The position numbers were made by a program, and so were the translations under genes. From assembly GCA_041660605.1 (NCBI GenBank), contig JBAZWB010000001.1, forward strand, positions 558,503 to 622,502: a DNA stretch of 64,000 bases, given 5' to 3'. The notes under the pieces are model-generated. The model saw only the letters and a program-made list of their open reading frames with translations. It was not told where the DNA came from and did not search any database. This document shows, one piece after another, positions 15,528 to 29,802 of the stretch. This DNA is from Patescibacteria group bacterium. Lineage in GTDB: Bacteria > Patescibacteriota > Patescibacteriia > UBA10025 > JAHIVO01. Numbering within the stretch: position 1 is the stretch's first letter; each line of letters starts with the position of its first letter.

Positions 15528-16787
15528 ATGAAGCATAAGCGCATTATTTTACATTTTGATATGAATTCATATTTCGCCAGCGTGGAGCAGCAGGCTAACC
15601 CTTTTTTGCGGGGCAAACCGCTGGGAGTATGCTCAACCATGTCATACCGCGGCTGCATTATCGCTTCGTCAAAGGAAGCAAAAAAAGTCGGGATTAAAAC
15701 CGGCTGCCGCGTCAATGAAGCCCTGGAGATTTATAAAGATGTTATCCTGGTGGAAGTTGATCCGCCGAAGTATCGCTCTACTACTCAGCGGATTTTTTCC
15801 TTGTGTGCGGAATACACCGAGCAGATTGAGGCTTACTCCATTGATGAGGCGTTTCTGGATCTGACCGGCACGGTAAGTTCGCTTGAAGAGGCTGAAAAAA
15901 TCGCCAGGGAGATCCAGCTGCGCATTAAAAATGAAATAGGCGAGTGGCTAGGATGTTCAATGGGCATAGCGCCGACGCGCTGGCTGGCTAAATTTGGCAG
16001 CGACACCGCGCCTAAGGGTGGCATTGTTTTATTGGCCAGAGAAAATTTGCATCAGTATTTAAAAGGCCGCGACGTGCAGGAGGCCTGGGGGATTGCCGGA
16101 GCCATGGCCAGCCGCTTGGCAGAGTGCGGTATCTATACTCTTGACCAGCTGGCAGATTATCCGGTGCAGAACCTGATTTCCGTCATGGGCATCCAGGGAT
16201 ATTATTTATGGGCCAACGTGAATGGGATGGAACTGTCCGGCCTGGAGGTGAAGCGGCCGCCTAAGACCATCGGGCATTCGCATGTCCTGAAAAAGCGCAG
16301 TACCGACGCCAAGTTCAATCAGGCAGTGATTATGCGTTTGGCTGAGCGGACGGGCCGGCGCCTGCGCGACCAAGGCCTTGAAGCCCATGGCATCTATTGG
16401 GCTGTACAGTTTGACGACCGCGAAGGGCTCCATGGCAGCAAAAGGCTGGGCTATCCCATGCTGACTACCAGCCAGATCTTTCATTTTGTCTGGCAGACAG
16501 TGGCGCCGGCGGTGGCCAGGAACAAGCCGGGGTTTTTTGCCCTGGGTCTTTTCGGCTTGCGGCCGCAGGTGAACCAACTGTCGCTTTTTAGCGGTAAAAA
16601 AAGGCTGTCGCCGGAATTGTCGCGGGCTTTGGACGAGATAAATAATAAATACGGCGAAGAAACGGTGGTTCAGGGGCCATTGATAAATCTTGACGGCAGG
16701 CATGTGCCTGACCGCGTCGGGTTCAGAAAAACGATGGAAGCGGAGTTCAGCGGTATTGGCAATGAATACATCAGTGAAAGTGACTAG
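15528..16787 (+). CDS. Y-family DNA polymerase (UmuC/PolV-like translesion polymerase)
   Basis: 419 aa. ILHFDMNSYFASVEQ catalytic N-terminus. YRGCIIASSKEAK and SIDEAFLDLTG motifs resemble UmuC more than DinB. GC content far above the genome background. Confidence 0.85.
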   Translation: MKHKRIILHFDMNSYFASVEQQANPFLRGKPLGVCSTMSYRGCIIASSKEAKKVGIKTGCRVNEALEIYKDVILVEVDPPKYRSTTQRIFSLCAEYTEQIEAYSIDEAFLDLTGTVSSLEEAEKIAREIQLRIKNEIGEWLGCSMGIAPTRWLAKFGSDTAPKGGIVLLARENLHQYLKGRDVQEAWGIAGAMASRLAECGIYTLDQLADYPVQNLISVMGIQGYYLWANVNGMELSGLEVKRPPKTIGHSHVLKKRSTDAKFNQAVIMRLAERTGRRLRDQGLEAHGIYWAVQFDDREGLHGSKRLGYPMLTTSQIFHFVWQTVAPAVARNKPGFFALGLFGLRPQVNQLSLFSGKKRLSPELSRALDEINNKYGEETVVQGPLINLDGRHVPDRVGFRKTMEAEFSGIGNEYISESD

Positions 16788-16791
16788 ATGC

Positions 16792-16820
16792 TTGCAAGGG
16801 AAAAATAACTGTGCTATAGT
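16792..16820 (+). promoter_or_regulatory. Promoter TTGCAA-17-TATAGT
   Basis: Lies immediately after the polymerase stop codon (16785-16787). Confidence 0.45.
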
Positions 16821-16826
16821 GCAGGC

Positions 16827-16938
16827 ATGAATATTTTAGCAGCAAATAATAATTGGCAAACTGCCCTGAAAGCTGGGTAGTGTTGTGCTGTTAAAGTAAT
16901 TTATTTGATAAGCACTGCCCAGCTAGGGCAGTTTTTTT
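16827..16938 (+). ncRNA. Candidate about 110-nt small RNA (promoter to terminator, no ORF)
   Basis: Bounded by the TTGCAA-17-TATAGT promoter and the CTGCCC-agcta-GGGCAG-T7 terminator. Internal stem ACUGCCC/GGGUAGU. No start codon or SD. Confidence 0.35.
16915..16938 (+). terminator. Rho-independent terminator
   Basis: CTGCCC agcta GGGCAG followed by TTTTTTT. Confidence 0.65.
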
Positions 16939-16988
16939 GTTATATATATGAGAAAAATATATTTTATGAAAAACAGATGTACGTTTAA

Positions 16989-18257
16989 GTGGCGATTTTC
17001 GTTGAATTATTGTGTTTGATTAATAAATTAATAATTACACTTATGAATTCGCAAAATTTTAAAGTAAAAGCAACTCCTGATAAACTGGGTTTTTTTGGCA
17101 AATATGGCGGACAGCACGTACCCCCGCAGTTAAAGTTAGAATTAGATAAAATTACCTCTGCTTATTTGGCAGCAAAAAAAGATAAGGAATTTCAGGAAGA
17201 ATTAAGTTCATTGCTGAGAGATTACGTCGGCCGGCCGTCTCCATTGTATTTTGCTAAAAATTTAACAAAATATCTGGGTGGTGCGAAAGTGTATTTGAAA
17301 CGTGAGGATTTAAATCATACCGGCGCCCATAAAATCAACCACACATTGGGAGAGGCTTTACTGGCCAAAAGGATGGGGAAAAAGATTTTGCTGGCAGAAA
17401 CAGGAGCTGGGCAGCATGGAGTGGCTCTTTCTACGGCGGCAGTAATAGTAGGCTTGAAAGCGGAAATCCATATGGGTGCGATTGACTACGCCAAACAGCA
17501 TCCAAATGTTGTGCGCATGAAACTGCTGGGAGCGAAAGTCGTAAAAGTTGAAACCGGCGGACGCTGCCTGAAAGATGCGGTTGATAGCGCTTTCAACGCA
17601 TATATGCAGGATTTTGATAATACATTTTTTGGCATTGGTTCGGTTGTCGGTCCGCATCCATATCCGATGATGATCCGTGATTTCCAGTCAGTTGTCGGAC
17701 GCGAAGCGCGCAGGCAGATAATGGAACACACCGGAAAATTGCCTGATTATCTTATTGCCTGCGTTGGCGGAGGTTCAAATGCCATTGGCTTATTCCATGA
17801 ATTCATCGGTGATCAGATAAAAATGATCGGCGTTGAAGCCGGCGGCAGGGGGTTAGCAAAATTAGGCGATCATGCGGCTACCCTAACGCTGGGTCAGCCT
17901 GGCGTGATACATGGCATGTATACTTATCTGCTTCAGGATGAAAAAGGAGAACCGGCGCCGGTGCATTCCATTGCCTCAGGCCTGGATTATCCAGGCATCG
18001 GTCCGGCGCATTCAGAATTTAAAGACACCGGGCGGGTTAGCTATACAGTAGCTAATGATCAGGAAGCACTGGCGGCCTTTCAATTACTTTCAAAAATTGA
18101 AGGCATAATTCCGGCTCTTGAAAGCGCGCATGCCTTGGCGGAAGTGGTTAAATTGGCACCGACGCTAGATAAAAGCAAAGTAATCATACTAAATTTATCC
18201 GGCCGGGGAGACAAGGACGTGGATTATGTAGCAGAGCAGATCGGATTATCAGTATAG
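16989..18257 (+). CDS. trpB: Tryptophan synthase beta-like PLP enzyme (TrpB2 type). Likely true start at 17043
   Basis: [23 protein letters not shown]...[12 protein letters not shown]-lysine region. GGGSNAIG glycine loop. No other trp genes in the window. Confidence 0.85.
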
Positions 18258-25224: not shown

Positions 25225-26526
25225 ATGGCCAATATATCAAATAAAAATAAAAATCCTTTTGTGGGCTGTATAGTCGGCATAATATTGATTGCCGTATTTT
25301 TGTTAATCCCACAGAATAAAATTATTGCTCAGACTAATACTAACTCTGATACGAATACCAATTCTGATGCAACCCAAAACGACAATGCCGGAACAAATCC
25401 CTCGCTGGAAACTCTTAACTCAGAACTGGATGCCAAGAGAAATGCCATCGATGAATTGAAGAAAAAAACCGATAATTATGAAGCGAATATAAAAATAAAA
25501 CAGCAGGAAACATTGACTTTGCAAAATCAGATGAGCCTGATTGATTTGCAGGTACAGCAGACAGAAAATGATATCGAGACGGTCAAACAGGAAATCGAAA
25601 AGTCAAATTTGGAAATTGAAAGTATCGGCCTGACCATTGATCAAAAACAGGTAGAATTGGATAATAGCAAGGAATTGCTTTCTGAGTACCTGAGATTGAT
25701 AAATAAATACGATCAAAAAACTTCTTTGGAAATTTTCATGGTGAATGACAGTTTTTCACAATTTTTTGATCAGATGAAATACGCCAAGGATCTGGAAAAT
25801 AGCGCTGAAAAAGCCCTGGAAGGAATTAAACAGGCAAAAACAGAATTAGAAAATGAACGTACCGCGAAAGAGTCGAAAAAACAGGAGTTAAGTGATCTTT
25901 CTGAAAAACTATCCACCAGTATTGCTGATTTATCCGGTCAGAAAGAATATAAGAATGAATTGCTTGATGAAACCAAACAATCTGAAGAAAAATTTTTACA
26001 GTTATTAGAAGCAGCCAAGCAGGAGCAGCAGGCAGCTGAAGCAGAGATGAATTCGCTGGAAACAAAAGCGCGCCAGCAGCTGGAAGAGCAGGGGATTGAT
26101 TTAAATATTTCTTCGGTACTGATGTGGCCGGTCAGCCCGACCAGGGGCGTGTCGGCATATTTTCATGATCCGACTTATCCATTCAGAAAGTTATTTGAAC
26201 ATCCAGCCATTGATATCCCTGAGCCGCAGGGCACTCCTATTCGCTCAGCTGATAATGGTTATGTCGTCAGAGCAAAAAATGGAGGCTTGGGGTATAGCTA
26301 TATAATGATTGTTCATAACAATGAAATTTCCACAGTCTATGGGCATGTAAGCAGGATCGATGTGGCCGAAGAGGATTATGTTGTCCGCGGTCAGCAGATC
26401 GGCTTAGTCGGAGGCTTGCCTGGCACGCCTGGCGCAGGACCGTTAACTACAGGATCACATTTGCATTTTGAAGTGCGATCAAACGGTATTCCCGTAAATC
26501 CTCTGGATTATCTGCCGTCATTATAA
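25225..26526 (+). CDS. M23 family metallopeptidase with N-terminal coiled-coil (EnvC-like murein hydrolase activator/endopeptidase)
   Basis: 433 aa. Signal anchor, long coiled coil. C-terminal HxxxD...GSHLHFEVR LytM motifs. Confidence 0.8.
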   Translation: MANISNKNKNPFVGCIVGIILIAVFLLIPQNKIIAQTNTNSDTNTNSDATQNDNAGTNPSLETLNSELDAKRNAIDELKKKTDNYEANIKIKQQETLTLQNQMSLIDLQVQQTENDIETVKQEIEKSNLEIESIGLTIDQKQVELDNSKELLSEYLRLINKYDQKTSLEIFMVNDSFSQFFDQMKYAKDLENSAEKALEGIKQAKTELENERTAKESKKQELSDLSEKLSTSIADLSGQKEYKNELLDETKQSEEKFLQLLEAAKQEQQAAEAEMNSLETKARQQLEEQGIDLNISSVLMWPVSPTRGVSAYFHDPTYPFRKLFEHPAIDIPEPQGTPIRSADNGYVVRAKNGGLGYSYIMIVHNNEISTVYGHVSRIDVAEEDYVVRGQQIGLVGGLPGTPGAGPLTTGSHLHFEVRSNGIPVNPLDYLPSL

Positions 26527-26591: not shown

Positions 26592-28265
26592 ATGGTTTTC
26601 TTGATAAAAAATTATAAAGTCCTGCATTTTGAGGATGATGATAAGTTGTCAGATATATATAGAAAGGCATTTATCAGAGCAGGCCTTAAATACTGGCGCA
26701 TAAAGAATCCAAAAAAAAATTTTATTGAGCAGGTAGTTAATATCAAGCCGGGAATTATTTTGATGGATACCAGCCTGCCTGGGCAGGACGGGTTTTCTTT
26801 GGCTAAAATACTGCAAAAACACAAGCAAACAAGCAAAATACCCATAGTTGGGCTGTCTGATGTAGAAAGGTCCGTTGGCGTCAGATGGGCGCTGAATCTG
26901 GGTATGTATGATTATTGGATGCATGATATACGACGGCCTGAGAAAATCGCGCAGAAAATATATAAAATTCTAAATCCTGCGCCGTATCCAGACCGTGATT
27001 CATTGATAAGCGTGGGTTGGCTGGCGAAAAAGATAAAATTATTTTTTAAGCATCATCAGGCAATATGGCATTATGCATTAGTCATACTGTTCATGATGTG
27101 CGGACCTGCGATAATTTATTTTAATAATATTTTTATTAAAACGGCCGATGATTTTATTACAAAACTGCCAACCAGACTGAGTGTAGAGTTGCATGCAGTA
27201 AATTTTAGCTGGCAATACCAGGGAGAAAAATTTATCATAGAAAAAACACTGTATGGCAGAATCGACGAATTTTATAAAAACAGTGACTTGAAATTTTTTG
27301 GAGAAAATGATGCTCTTGACGAATACTACAAGTTTTTTTCAACTCAGTTGTCTGCAGGTGGCGACAATACTATTAATGATTTTTCTGAACAAATAATTAA
27401 ACAGGGGAATGAAAGAAATCTTTCTGAGGATCAGCTAGTCGAATTATCAGTCGGTTTTGTTCAGTCTATACCTTTTGATGAAGAAAAAAAGGAGGCTATC
27501 TTGAATGCTCCGGAGGTGTCTGATGGTGATAATCAGTCTGTCCTGGCGGCCGTAAAATCTTCCTGGCCCAGATTTCCTTATGAAACATTGTATGACAATA
27601 AAGGCGTATGCACAGACAAAACATTTTTGGCTATTGCTTTGCTGCAGCAGCTTGGATACGGTACGGCAATTTTTGATTATCAGACTCACATAGCTCCAGC
27701 GGTAAAATGCACTGACACATACTCAAATTTTAATTCAGGCTACTGCATCGCAGAAGTGACCTCGAATGGTTTTTTTATCGGGGAATTACCAGCCATAATG
27801 GATTCTTATGACCAAACCGTGAAAAAAGACGTTACTTATTTTTCCCAAAAAATGTGGAATATCGGCTTAACCGAGGAAATCATCCAAAAACCCAATATAG
27901 TGGCAATCAACGATGGGAAAAGCTATGAAAGAATTTCACAGCATGCTCCGATTTTTTCCGAAATGAATAAAATCGAAAATGAGTTCAACGATTTAAACGC
28001 AAAAATCAGTTTATTGCTGGAAAAAATAAATGCTCTCGAAAAAGAGGTCAAAACGTATAAAGATACAGTTAATGAAATATCAAAAAAACTGCAGACGGAC
28101 AATAGTTTGCAGTTATATTATCAATATGAAGAGGCGGCCAATAAATATAATAGCGCTTTTGAAAAACACGAAGGCGGTATAGCCGAATATGAGGCCTCCC
28201 TGATCAGCCAAAATAAACTGATTACAGAGTATCAGCAGTTATTAATGCAATTGGAAATAAATTGA
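26592..28265 (+). CDS. Receiver (REC)-like domain / TM / transglutaminase-like Cys-protease domain / coiled-coil fusion protein
   Basis: 557 aa. N-terminal HFEDDD...IILMDTSLPGQDG...IPIVGLSDV is CheY-like. One TM (about residues 150-175). GVCTDKTFLAIALLQQLGYGTAIF...THIAPAV is a transglutaminase-core-like Cys/His region. C-terminal heptad-rich about 100 aa. Confidence 0.45.
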   Translation: MVFLIKNYKVLHFEDDDKLSDIYRKAFIRAGLKYWRIKNPKKNFIEQVVNIKPGIILMDTSLPGQDGFSLAKILQKHKQTSKIPIVGLSDVERSVGVRWALNLGMYDYWMHDIRRPEKIAQKIYKILNPAPYPDRDSLISVGWLAKKIKLFFKHHQAIWHYALVILFMMCGPAIIYFNNIFIKTADDFITKLPTRLSVELHAVNFSWQYQGEKFIIEKTLYGRIDEFYKNSDLKFFGENDALDEYYKFFSTQLSAGGDNTINDFSEQIIKQGNERNLSEDQLVELSVGFVQSIPFDEEKKEAILNAPEVSDGDNQSVLAAVKSSWPRFPYETLYDNKGVCTDKTFLAIALLQQLGYGTAIFDYQTHIAPAVKCTDTYSNFNSGYCIAEVTSNGFFIGELPAIMDSYDQTVKKDVTYFSQKMWNIGLTEEIIQKPNIVAINDGKSYERISQHAPIFSEMNKIENEFNDLNAKISLLLEKINALEKEVKTYKDTVNEISKKLQTDNSLQLYYQYEEAANKYNSAFEKHEGGIAEYEASLISQNKLITEYQQLLMQLEIN

Positions 28266-28269
28266 TAGG

Positions 28270-28674
28270 CTACTTATTTTCGAAGTAATACCTGTAAAAA
28301 GTCTCCAGATTCGTCTCTTCTTTTGATTCTATGGCGCAAGCGCAATATTTCTGGCCGTCGTTGAGAATCTCAATGATATTGCGTTTTCCGGTTAAGAGCA
28401 GCTCCCAGGACTGCTGTGCGGTTAAAGTGCCCTTATTTTCCGGGATAACGCATCTTTTTTGCTTGGCTAATTCGCAATAATTAAAGCAGATTGTTTCATC
28501 CCAGCACATCCGTTCATGGGGCTGTTTGCTGAAAATTTTTGTCAGAATCAGCCCTGTCTGCGCGACTACGAAAATAATTATAATAATCCAGAAGGCCCTG
28601 ACTATTTTTTCAAATATCAAATTCAGCCTAGCTTTGGTGGAGATTTTTTTTGGATTATGTATTGTGGGATCCAT
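28270..28674 (-). CDS. Signal-anchored Cys-rich hypothetical protein
   Basis: 134 aa, one N-terminal TM, 6 Cys in the ectodomain. Confidence 0.4.
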   Translation of the reverse strand: MDPTIHNPKKISTKARLNLIFEKIVRAFWIIIIIFVVAQTGLILTKIFSKQPHERMCWDETICFNYCELAKQKRCVIPENKGTLTAQQSWELLLTGKRNIIEILNDGQKYCACAIESKEETNLETFYRYYFENK

Positions 28675-28683
28675 TTATCGGTC

Positions 28684-29070
28684 TTATTGCTTTAGTTTTC
28701 TTTTTTTCTCCCAATTACGCACAGAAGCTTCATCCATGCCGAAATAATGGCCGATTTCATGATGCACTACGCTAAAAATAAGCCGTTTGACTTTTGTTTC
28801 ATCAGCACCAGCGATCAGTTCGATCGATCTTTTGAATATGGTGATTTTATCAGGCAGTACCCCGCTATAATATCCGCTTCTCTTGGTCAGCGGCACTCCC
28901 TGGTATAAGCCCAGCAATATTCTTCCGGATTTGATATATTTTTCATTTGACTGGGCGTTTCTGACATCTTCTTCCACTACAAATGCAAGATTTTCTATTT
29001 TTTTTCTTAGTTCCAGGGGTACTTTCTCAACCGCCTGTTTTACGTATTCTTCGAATTCCTGCAATTCCAT
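28684..29070 (-). CDS. Zincin-like metallopeptidase (HExxH; Zincin_1/DUF1025-like)
   Basis: 128 aa. C-terminal VVHHEIGHYFGMDE. Confidence 0.6.
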   Translation of the reverse strand: MELQEFEEYVKQAVEKVPLELRKKIENLAFVVEEDVRNAQSNEKYIKSGRILLGLYQGVPLTKRSGYYSGVLPDKITIFKRSIELIAGADETKVKRLIFSVVHHEIGHYFGMDEASVRNWEKKRKLKQ

Positions 29071-29082
29071 TTGAAGTTTAAA

Positions 29083-29802
29083 TTAAAATTTGACTGGTAT
29101 CTCCAGCTGTTTTTGATTGGCGTTCAATCCTGAAGGATTTTCATTATTTATAAAAATATTTCCCTGGCTGGTTTGCGGGTCGGAGAATTCCAGCTTCAGT
29201 GTAAACGGCACGAAATCAGTAGTCATCCATTCATCCTGAGCGCTGGCGTTTCCGCTGCCAATGATGGCCCCGTTTGCATTTTTTACAGTTACCGGCATTA
29301 CCGCTTCAAAAAACCAGGTCCCGCGTGCCTGCCCGCTGATAGTAATCGGACTGGAAATTTTTTGATTTGGACGCGGGTTATCAACTTTTATTTCATCTGT
29401 CATTTCCAATTCGTTGCCGATGTTTTGCGTATAAGTCTGGCCACCGGGCACGGCGCATCGGGACGGATAACTTTCCATAACAGGATAGCCGGCAGCCACG
29501 CAATCATCATATGAAGTTATGTTTACCTGAGAATTAGAATTACTAGTATTTACAGATGGGTTTGAATTTTGATTATTTGAATTGCCGCATTTTCCAGTTG
29601 GTGCAAGGGAGGCTGGGTTACCATGCTTCACCCATTGGCTATTACTGCAGACCCAGGTATCCTCTTCGGTATTAAAGCGTACGACTACCAGTATCAGCCC
29701 GGCAATAATGATTATACTGCCCAGGATCAAATAGACTTTTTTTTGTTTTTTTGTTGCTGTCATAATAGCATGAATGTGAATGATTATGCCTTCAATATAC
29801 AT
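29083..29802 (-). CDS. Membrane-anchored protein with C-terminal Gmad2-like Ig-fold domain
   Basis: 239 aa. PITISGQARGTWFFEAVMPVTVKNANGAIIGSGNASAQDEWMTTDFVPFTLKLEF resembles the Gmad2 domain. Ser/Asn-rich linker. Confidence 0.45.
   Translation of the reverse strand: MYIEGIIIHIHAIMTATKKQKKVYLILGSIIIIAGLILVVVRFNTEEDTWVCSNSQWVKHGNPASLAPTGKCGNSNNQNSNPSVNTSNSNSQVNITSYDDCVAAGYPVMESYPSRCAVPGGQTYTQNIGNELEMTDEIKVDNPRPNQKISSPITISGQARGTWFFEAVMPVTVKNANGAIIGSGNASAQDEWMTTDFVPFTLKLEFSDPQTSQGNIFINNENPSGLNANQKQLEIPVKF

Follow-up and report, generated by a model that had tools for sequence, protein, structure and literature searches.

The window analysed here, a stretch of 64,000 nucleotides from contig JBAZWB010000001.1 of a Patescibacteria group bacterium, encodes a 557-residue protein in which a CheY-like receiver (REC) domain, one transmembrane helix, a transglutaminase-like (TGL) ectodomain and a helical hairpin follow one another. 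This REC-TGL protein is a type-II membrane protein, with its N-terminus inside the cell and its C-terminus outside. The fusion of receiver and ectodomain is real, inherited and rare, the receiver being an N-terminal add-on in a small clade of Patescibacteria. The reading that I favour, with a probability of roughly 40%, is that the protein acts at the cell surface as a cysteine peptidase or transamidase, and that the cytoplasmic receiver determines how it self-associates or where it is placed.

The gene is one unbroken frame of 557 codons, exactly where the initial annotation, made from the sequence and its open reading frames (ORFs), had placed it (Table 1). The AlphaFold2 (AF2) model of the full-length protein has a mean predicted local distance difference test (pLDDT) score of 81.9. 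That annotation had proposed a receiver-like N-terminus, a single membrane helix, an extracytoplasmic Cys/His domain and a coiled-coil tail, and every one of these elements passed the tests run. Its term "one-component" is looser: the layout stands, but receivers are input domains and there is no sensor.

Domain architecture and topology

The Pfam model Response_reg (PF00072) matches residues 11-113 with 35.9 bits against a gathering cut-off of 30.2, and many NCBIfam response-regulator models match the same N-terminal stretch. Among receiver sequences in the PDB, 108 match at E <= 1, the best at 3.5e-6, and in Foldseek the REC part of the AF2 model reaches target-normalised TM-scores of 0.7-0.8 against DivK, RR468 and PhoB. 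When the helix that follows is included, the top structural matches are the WspR-type proteins 3i5a and 3bre (171 columns). The three motifs on which the CheY-like assignment was first made, HFEDDD (12-17), IILMDTSLPGQDG (55-67) and IPIVGLSDV (83-91), are all present.

The active site was read from an alignment of five full-length homologues, a sixth, split member, and CheY, PhoB and Spo0F. Asp59 (codon 26766-26768), with which strand beta3 ends, aligns with the acceptor Asp57 of CheY and is invariant in all six REC-bearing members, and the acceptor first proposed from one sequence is thereby conserved in its homologues. Glu14, which is also invariant, and Asp15, kept in five of the six, are the counterparts of CheY Asp12/Asp13, the metal-binding acidic pair behind beta1. 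Ser89 (CheY Thr87), where beta4 ends, and the aromatic switch residue of beta5, Tyr108 (CheY Tyr106), are invariant as well. As the REC-bearing members share only 34-43% overall identity, the invariance of Glu14, Asp59, Ser89 and Tyr108 indicates that the domain is under selection as a receiver. The best-conserved part of REC is its alpha4-beta5 face (column conservation 0.73), which carries the clade-specific invariant residues Gly96, Arg98, Trp99, Ala100, Asn102 and Trp109; this face is the usual dimer and output surface of receivers. From its residues, the domain apparently keeps the chemistry of phosphorylation, with an unusual switch and output face.

The protein has exactly one hydrophobic segment, as had been supposed. 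Four Lys and Arg residues flank it on the N-terminal side and one on the C-terminal side, and the N-terminal flank holds no acidic residues. The relatives of the ectodomain have the same design: 204 of 263 carry one helix directly before the ectodomain and none after it, their cytoplasmic stub is short (median 8.5 residues) and resembles that of a signal anchor, and the excess of Lys and Arg lies on the N-terminal side in 133 members and on the C-terminal side in 38. Relatives fused to the extracytoplasmic modules SecDF-P1-head and TSP3 agree with an inside N-terminus and an outside C-terminus, and one archaeal relative starts with a lipoprotein-like signal. Furthermore, the ectodomain contains two cysteines, Cys373 and Cys385, that are both present in 208 members and both missing from 23, Cys385 never occurring without Cys373. 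This pair behaves like a disulfide, which fits an extracytoplasmic location. Taken together, the positive-inside bias, the signal-anchor stubs, the fusions and the cysteine pair place REC in the cytoplasm and everything beyond residue 181 outside the cell, so that the topology check suggested at the outset is answered by flanking charge, family-wide bias and fusion partners alike.

Between receiver and helix lies a linker that begins after the invariant Pro129 and ranges from 11 to 26 residues across the six members; its column conservation is 0.27, against 0.69 for REC. A connection that is short, contains proline, is poorly conserved and is modelled with low pLDDT speaks against rigid helical transmission and favours tethering or oligomerisation. 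Thus, of the "signalling architecture" originally described, the layout is supported, but rigid allostery across the membrane is not implied, as the linker looks like a flexible tether.

The ectodomain had been likened to transglutaminase-like cysteine proteases on account of a short Cys/His region. That region, GVC(340)TD...H(366)IAPAV, falls inside a match to the Pfam family DUF553 (PF04473) which, like the match to Response_reg, lies above its curated cut-off. The isolated ectodomain scores 22.9 bits against DUF553, and among relatives DUF553 is matched by 18 of 19 (best 4e-9) and Transglut_core by 8 of 19. DUF553 is family 3 of the 1999 transglutaminase-like superfamily of Makarova, Aravind and Koonin, according to the summary in PMC10318531. 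An AF2 model of the ectodomain by itself (186-452) has a confident core and a predicted template-modelling score of 0.83. Its Foldseek matches in the PDB that carry signal are all transglutaminase- or papain-like: the best is 3isr, a putative cysteine protease (E 6e-4, probability 0.96), and others include LapG, PNGase, arylamine N-acetyltransferases, Rad4, menin, TglA and the pseudomurein isopeptidase PeiP. Two ectodomain profiles searched against PDB sequences returned noise only (M18 aminopeptidase, CLK3 and GdmF, E >= 0.2) and no solved structure of a DUF553 member.

Within the core, which also holds the motif PYE(331), the candidate catalytic residues occupy plausible places in the AF2 models: Cys340 (27609-27611) opens helix 340-353, His366 (27687-27689) stands before strand 367-373 and Glu388 (27753-27755) follows strand 384-386. 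All three are present in 257 of the 263 relatives, and the cysteine alone in 261, which settles whether the catalytic Cys of the first description is conserved. Gln291, in the subdomain that precedes the core, is likewise kept in 257 of 263. As part of the DUF553 branch of the transglutaminase/papain-like superfamily, and with its Cys340-His366-Glu388 set complete, the ectodomain is most likely an active thiol enzyme of the cell envelope, whether peptidase, isopeptidase or transamidase.

The heptad-rich tail noted at first appears both in a heptad scan and as two long modelled helices, 448-503 and 506-556, with pLDDT of about 90-96 and clear heptad character. The hairpin is kept in Patescibacteria relatives with or without REC. 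The archaeal members inspected have a non-coiled-coil C-terminal region in its place, and some Methanosarcina members are labelled CARDB domain-containing in UniRef.

Table 1. Positions in the window of the REC-TGL gene, its parts and its upstream neighbour
Feature	Residues	Coordinates	Strand	Basis
Complete REC-TM-transglutaminase-like-coiled-coil gene (TM, transmembrane)		26592..28265	+	ORF list; 557 aa, stop codon included
Cytoplasmic REC domain	9-127	26616..26972	+	Pfam PF00072, PDB receiver matches, Foldseek, residue conservation
Variable, basic, proline-containing linker	130-156	26979..27059	+	Low conservation, pLDDT 44-52
Single TM helix, N-terminus cytoplasmic	157-181	27060..27134	+	Sole Kyte-Doolittle peak >1.6; charge bias
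Extracytoplasmic N-terminal subdomain	186-320	27147..27551	+	Beta-hairpin and helices; FVQ(291)SIP.D invariant; AF2
Transglutaminase/papain-like catalytic core	321-400	27552..27791	+	DUF553, Foldseek, residue conservation
Variable loop and closing beta-strand	401-447	27792..27932	+	Low pLDDT at 402-406 and 420-430; strand 435-440; poorly conserved
Extracytoplasmic antiparallel helical hairpin	448-556	27933..28259	+	AF2, heptad scan, weak coiled-coil-type Pfam matches
Membrane-anchored coiled-coil M23 metallopeptidase, upstream neighbour		25225..26526	+	Pfam M23, 83.7 bits; NCBIfam EnvC-like

Distribution of the fusion and its genomic surroundings

The ectodomain profile retrieves at least 1,242 proteins, from Patescibacteria, Methanosarcina, DPANN archaea and others, and the module of membrane helix, ectodomain and hairpin mostly occurs without REC. 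In an exhaustive HMMER search of 1.84 billion cluster representatives, the full-length profile was matched end to end only by P0001 (the protein of the window), P0002 to P0005, and P0132. Among 185,579 species-representative genomes, REC is present at 3 of 141 loci of the family. A profile of REC, linker and membrane helix found, beyond the split member P0132, nothing better than E 1e-4.

P0132, which holds REC, the membrane helix and the start of the ectodomain, adjoins P0006, which holds the remainder, on JGI contig Ga0451423_084458 (locus L087, 664-2246). Lying 5 nt apart on one contig, the two are taken as one interrupted gene and counted as the sixth member. The split may be a recent pseudogene or a sequencing error, and a fragment of a phage integrase lies at the end of the contig. 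The fusion is both real and inherited, for it is found in six clusters independent of one another, in three genomes that represent species and across several assemblies.

The TGL and coiled-coil module is highly portable. Other members fuse it to an N-terminal major facilitator superfamily (MFS) transporter, to SecDF-P1-head, to TSP3 calcium-binding repeats or to cytoplasmic zinc ribbons (P0167, P0171, P0178, P0136, P0202 and P0222). The nearest relatives of the receiver itself are proteins with two receivers in tandem (REC-REC; P0179, P0215, P0243, P0245 and P0269), apparently from the candidate phyla radiation (CPR). They share the motifs ILHFEDD, MPxMDGF and TPxEV with the receiver studied here, and in three of the five the C-terminus is a hydrophobic anchor; these REC-REC(-TM) relatives may be membrane-tethered pseudo-receivers.

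The upstream neighbour is an M23 metallopeptidase whose N-terminal part is EnvC-like (E 2.8e-8). Its zinc motifs, HxxxD (HPAID) and HxH (HLH), are intact, which makes an active endopeptidase more probable than a degenerate activator of the EnvC/NlpD type. Only 65 bp, without a terminator-like site, separate it from the REC-TGL gene. The order Carb_kinase, an uncharacterised gene, Macro, permease, GltX, M23 and REC-TGL recurs in the window and around P0005 and P0002, and the part from permease to REC-TGL is kept at P0003, where the contig is too short for more. P0004 lies outside this block: its gene is flanked by a divergent sortase gene and a queuosine-synthesis gene, and the locus (L002/L009) is envelope-related, with SpoIID, VanW/PG_binding_4 and polysaccharide-synthesis genes within 8 kb. 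Elsewhere in the family an M23 gene is nearby at only 1 of about 77 loci without REC, and an unbiased clustering of the neighbours at 76 family loci found none that recurs in more than 6. Shared ancestry best explains an adjacency that is embedded in a syntenic block of about seven genes that includes gltX, and the adjacency is weak evidence of function. Thus the coiled-coil M23 gene upstream, to which the initial annotation drew attention, is indeed there, but its position is a matter of synteny in one lineage. The M23 protein was considered as a functional partner of the whole family and rejected, being confined to one syntenic lineage and 1 of about 77 other loci.

Downstream, three small genes on the opposite strand (28270-29802) converge on the REC-TGL gene. 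One encodes a 134-residue membrane protein that has four Cys and fits no family, another a Zincin_1 metallopeptidase-like protein (76.7 bits), and the third an immunoglobulin-like Gmad2 protein with a membrane anchor (51.5 bits). A Gmad2 gene also lies downstream of the P0005 homologue. The Pfam matches listed for the window include the wall and shape genes MreB, a penicillin-binding protein (PBP) transpeptidase, Ddl and Alr, and also aminoacyl-tRNA synthetases and RRF, a gene content typical of a small Patescibacteria genome. Scans of the 64-kb window for tRNA genes and Rfam families gave no match. Its G+C content is about 38%, except that positions 16001-18000, where an IMS (Y-family polymerase) gene ends and a PALP-family gene lies, reach 0.475. 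At 9-1883 on the reverse strand lies a PriA-like ORF of 624 aa in which, at E <= 0.001, only the PriA 3'-DNA-binding domain was matched. A scan of the window ORFs of at least 100 aa for the Walker A motif (G.{4}GK[ST]) came up empty, and the PriA-like ORF may have a divergent or degenerate helicase core.

What the receiver may do for the enzyme

Architecture, topology, the families of the two domains, the conserved active-site residues on either side of the membrane and the rarity of the fusion are shown; how the two halves of the protein communicate is inferred, and the mechanism that I propose is as follows. The receiver would serve as the regulatory input. Its state would depend on whether Asp59 is phosphorylated, with an unlinked kinase or a small phosphodonor as the source of the phosphate, or else on a conformational switch of equivalent effect. 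The self-association of the receiver would follow that state and, through the flexible tether, alter how the helix, the ectodomain and the hairpin oligomerise or where they sit laterally. The surface enzyme would thereby be switched or repositioned, an "inside-out" control exerted within one polypeptide. As the ectodomain family is common in archaea that have no murein, a protein of the cell surface is a likelier substrate than peptidoglycan. A more ambitious version, which I think rather unlikely to hold in full, would make this the first response regulator with its output outside the cell. Phosphorylation of Asp59 would act through oligomerisation of the single-pass protein to switch an extracellular transglutaminase-like protease or cross-linking enzyme; that enzyme would remodel surface proteins, for example attachment structures, of an ultra-small and probably episymbiotic cell, and the His found in place of the receiver's usual Lys would mark a distinct coupling to the alpha4-beta5 face.

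A number of observations weigh against a receiver-controlled enzyme, some of them touching the ectodomain and its connection to the receiver, others the receiver itself. Over the whole protein the DUF553 match is marginal (21.6 bits against a cut-off of 20.5), the fold matches of the ectodomain are distant (TM-score 0.2-0.34), and aligning the ectodomain profile to the core of human transglutaminase 2 (TG2) with hhalign gave a probability of 0.08%, which is not significant; the sole segment returned in that non-significant alignment pairs Cys340 with TG2 Cys277. Allosteric changes pass poorly along a flexible linker. Most members of the family have no cytoplasmic domain at all and must work without one, so regulation is not intrinsic to the enzyme.

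The points that touch the receiver lead to the main rival, which I hold to be doubtful: the domain would be a pseudo-receiver, a receiver fold without phosphotransfer, that serves as a constitutive module for dimerisation or for docking (for example on cytoskeletal or divisome proteins) and fixes the place or stoichiometry of the enzyme, with no switch involved. At the position of CheY Lys109, all six members have His (His111, codon 26922-26924), as HMMER alignments to PDB receivers agree, and the Lys-Pro motif is lost, for the residue after His111 varies (D/K/S/T/G) and the cis-Pro of canonical receivers is absent. P0004 has Asn for Asp15, and P0005 has a degenerate PxxDG loop. The REC-REC relatives keep the beta5 Lys, and several of them have Asn, Ser or Gly for the acceptor Asp. 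With the Lys absent and the nearest relatives partly degenerate, phosphotransfer is not assured. The AF2 model has low confidence in the alpha4-beta5 region (residues 91-120, pLDDT 61-71) and a non-canonical secondary-structure call, where the underlying alignment is five sequences deep. Many Foldseek matches align tightly over the first ~80 residues of REC only, and the receiver of FrzS, which is not phosphorylated, is among the top matches. Finally, other family members have unrelated small cytoplasmic modules, such as zinc ribbons, at the position that REC occupies here.

The search for a kinase bears on the same rival. An H-box scan of all six frames of the 64-kb window, run with positive controls, found none, and phmmer with EnvZ and HK853 (which detect each other at E 1e-17) found nothing in 926 ORFs from the window and the five other REC-bearing loci. 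Thus there is no histidine kinase in the window, as the initial annotation had maintained, nor within about 6-10 kb at the five other loci; a second receiver was not found in the window either. Orphan response regulators with kinases encoded elsewhere are common, however, and a pseudo-receiver also has to accommodate the invariance of Asp59, Glu14, Ser89 and Tyr108, the residues of phosphorylation chemistry and of Y-T coupling, across six members so far diverged. Unless the active site is under selection, such invariance would be difficult to account for, and the His could in principle supply the positive charge of the missing Lys.

Regulation of another kind is conceivable if the protein forms a peptidoglycan-remodelling pair with its M23 neighbour, gated from the cytoplasm, the receiver replacing the ATP-binding cassette (ABC) ATPase of FtsEX-EnvC or FtsEX-PcsB. 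I consider this improbable. The two genes share a strand and the short, terminator-free gap, and among five REC-bearing genomes in which the upstream gene was looked at, M23 adjoins REC-TGL in four (those of the window, P0005, P0002 and P0003). The M23 protein has its EnvC-like coiled coil and its zinc ligands, genes for wall and shape are plentiful in the window, PeiP is among the fold relatives of the ectodomain, and sortase, SpoIID and VanW/PG-binding genes lie near P0004. Yet the adjacency sits in the block with gltX, the permease and the macro-domain gene, for which shared ancestry suffices; it is absent at P0004, and it is all but missing from the loci without REC, where no neighbour recurs widely. 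The family is also abundant in archaea without murein. Nor did the window yield an ABC protein: no signature motif was found in its ORFs of at least 100 aa (at the level of a regular expression only), and no FtsE or FtsX was found.

Signalling might instead run from the outside in, with the ectodomain as the sensor of a ligand or substrate and the tethered receiver as the output, acting as a phosphate sink or through its availability to a cytoplasmic partner. Some proteins of the transglutaminase fold, such as Rad4 and menin among the fold matches, are binding modules; a tethered receiver without a cytoplasmic effector domain could in principle serve as a phosphate sink; and REC-REC-TM proteins without an ectodomain exist in related genomes. 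However, receivers are inputs in known systems, the near-universal Cys-His-Glu set argues for catalysis over mere binding, and the flexible linker opposes transmission in this direction too. This alternative is therefore very improbable. Finally, an error of gene calling or assembly that fused a small response regulator gene to a membrane protein gene is effectively refuted, although L087 is annotated as two genes, by the uninterrupted frame in the window, by the same protein on several independent assemblies (at least four contigs, one of about 0.96 Mb, carry an identical P0001), by five further clusters at 34-43% identity with the same continuous architecture, and by the position of the sole membrane helix between the two parts, without which a separate ectodomain gene would lack an anchor.

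Relation to known systems and significance

The nearest functional analogue is LapD/LapG, although the REC-TGL protein is not a member of that system. In Pseudomonas fluorescens, cytoplasmic cyclic di-GMP (c-di-GMP) controls a periplasmic transglutaminase-like cysteine protease through LapD and LapG (PMC3032545, PMC4359373). The likeness is that a cytoplasmic signalling state governs an extracytoplasmic transglutaminase-fold protease, with a Cys-His-acid set, at the cell surface; the LapG fold matches of the ectodomain are weak (4u65_E, E 0.011; 4fgo, E 0.049; Foldseek). The differences are several. Lap consists of two proteins, a receptor and a free protease, whereas REC-TGL is one polypeptide. 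The input of Lap is c-di-GMP bound to a degenerate EAL domain and relayed via HAMP, whereas that of REC-TGL is a receiver. LapG belongs to a family other than DUF553 and has Cys-His-Asp with calcium, and its control is by sequestration. No HAMP, GGDEF or EAL domain was found in the REC-TGL protein by Pfam or in the called genes of the loci, and adhesin or type I secretion genes were not found here.

Among cytoplasmic regulators, CheB, WspR/PleD and RssB likewise have an N-terminal CheY-like receiver before an enzyme domain. Their output is cytoplasmic and is packed on the receiver or rigidly linked to it, whereas REC-TGL has a membrane helix and a flexible tether, an enzyme outside the cell, and His for Lys. 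From the side of the enzyme, the ectodomain belongs with DUF553 by its above-threshold match and its shared Cys/His core, and Methanosarcina and other archaeal relatives are in the same sequence family. Typical DUF553-like members have only a signal anchor, however; members from Patescibacteria add the hairpin, and only six add a receiver. In the REC-TGL set the third residue is Glu, not Asp.

FtsEX-EnvC and FtsEX-PcsB are comparable in that extracytoplasmic coiled-coil hydrolases are controlled from the cytoplasm, and the gene adjacent to REC-TGL encodes an EnvC-like M23 protein. In PcsB a coiled coil is joined to a thiol peptidase of the papain-like (CHAP) type. In the REC-TGL protein the enzyme comes before the coiled coil, in the reverse order, and belongs to another enzyme family, and the link to M23 is not family-wide.

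For the architecture, the nearest precedent is MetOD3, a membrane-anchored output domain of archaeal response regulators with a narrow phyletic range that is barely characterised (Galperin et al. 2018, PMC5847659). It sets a precedent for fusing a receiver to the membrane, but it is an unrelated methanogen domain, without a recognised enzyme fold or evidence of an extracytoplasmic catalytic domain. FrzS and the REC-REC(-TM) proteins of the CPR show how a receiver fold can be kept while its signature positions depart. The pattern differs, for the REC-TGL clade keeps the Asp and loses the Lys, whereas in the CPR REC-REC proteins the Lys is mostly retained and the Asp often lost, and none has an ectodomain.

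The same radiation has another thiol protease of the transglutaminase-like superfamily, CPR-C4, a CPR-widespread cysteine protease with a vasohibin-like fold (PMC9108980). The crystallised enzyme is homodimeric, is about 215 residues long and has a zinc site besides its Cys-His-Leu(carbonyl) triad. No membrane anchor or receiver is described for it. That the ectodomain is itself CPR-C4 was considered and rejected on its triad, its size and its fold neighbours, only VASH1 appearing among the fold matches (E about 0.9).

In the literature searched on DUF553, on receivers with transglutaminase-like domains and on membrane-anchored response regulators, a coverage that is incomplete, this architecture is not described, in keeping with the original remark that it is not a described signalling architecture. 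Public annotation already calls the protein a response regulator (NCBI labels P0001 'response regulator [Patescibacteria group bacterium]'). In censuses of response regulators, the outputs recorded bind DNA, RNA or protein or are cytoplasmic enzymes. Seen from one side, what would be new is a response regulator whose enzymatic output is extracytoplasmic; seen from the other, with equal right, it is a cytoplasmic regulatory domain on a DUF553 surface enzyme.

The fusion is limited to six clusters, its hosts are uncultured and the receiver is possibly a pseudo-receiver. If the receiver is functional, two-component signalling would extend to the direct control of the cell surface by a single polypeptide, an inside-out logic so far known mainly from the multi-protein, c-di-GMP-driven Lap system. 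The protein also provides a first regulatory handle on a large and entirely uncharacterised family of surface thiol enzymes, the DUF553-like proteins, which is common to Patescibacteria and to methanogenic and DPANN archaea, organisms whose surface biology and attachment to hosts are poorly understood.

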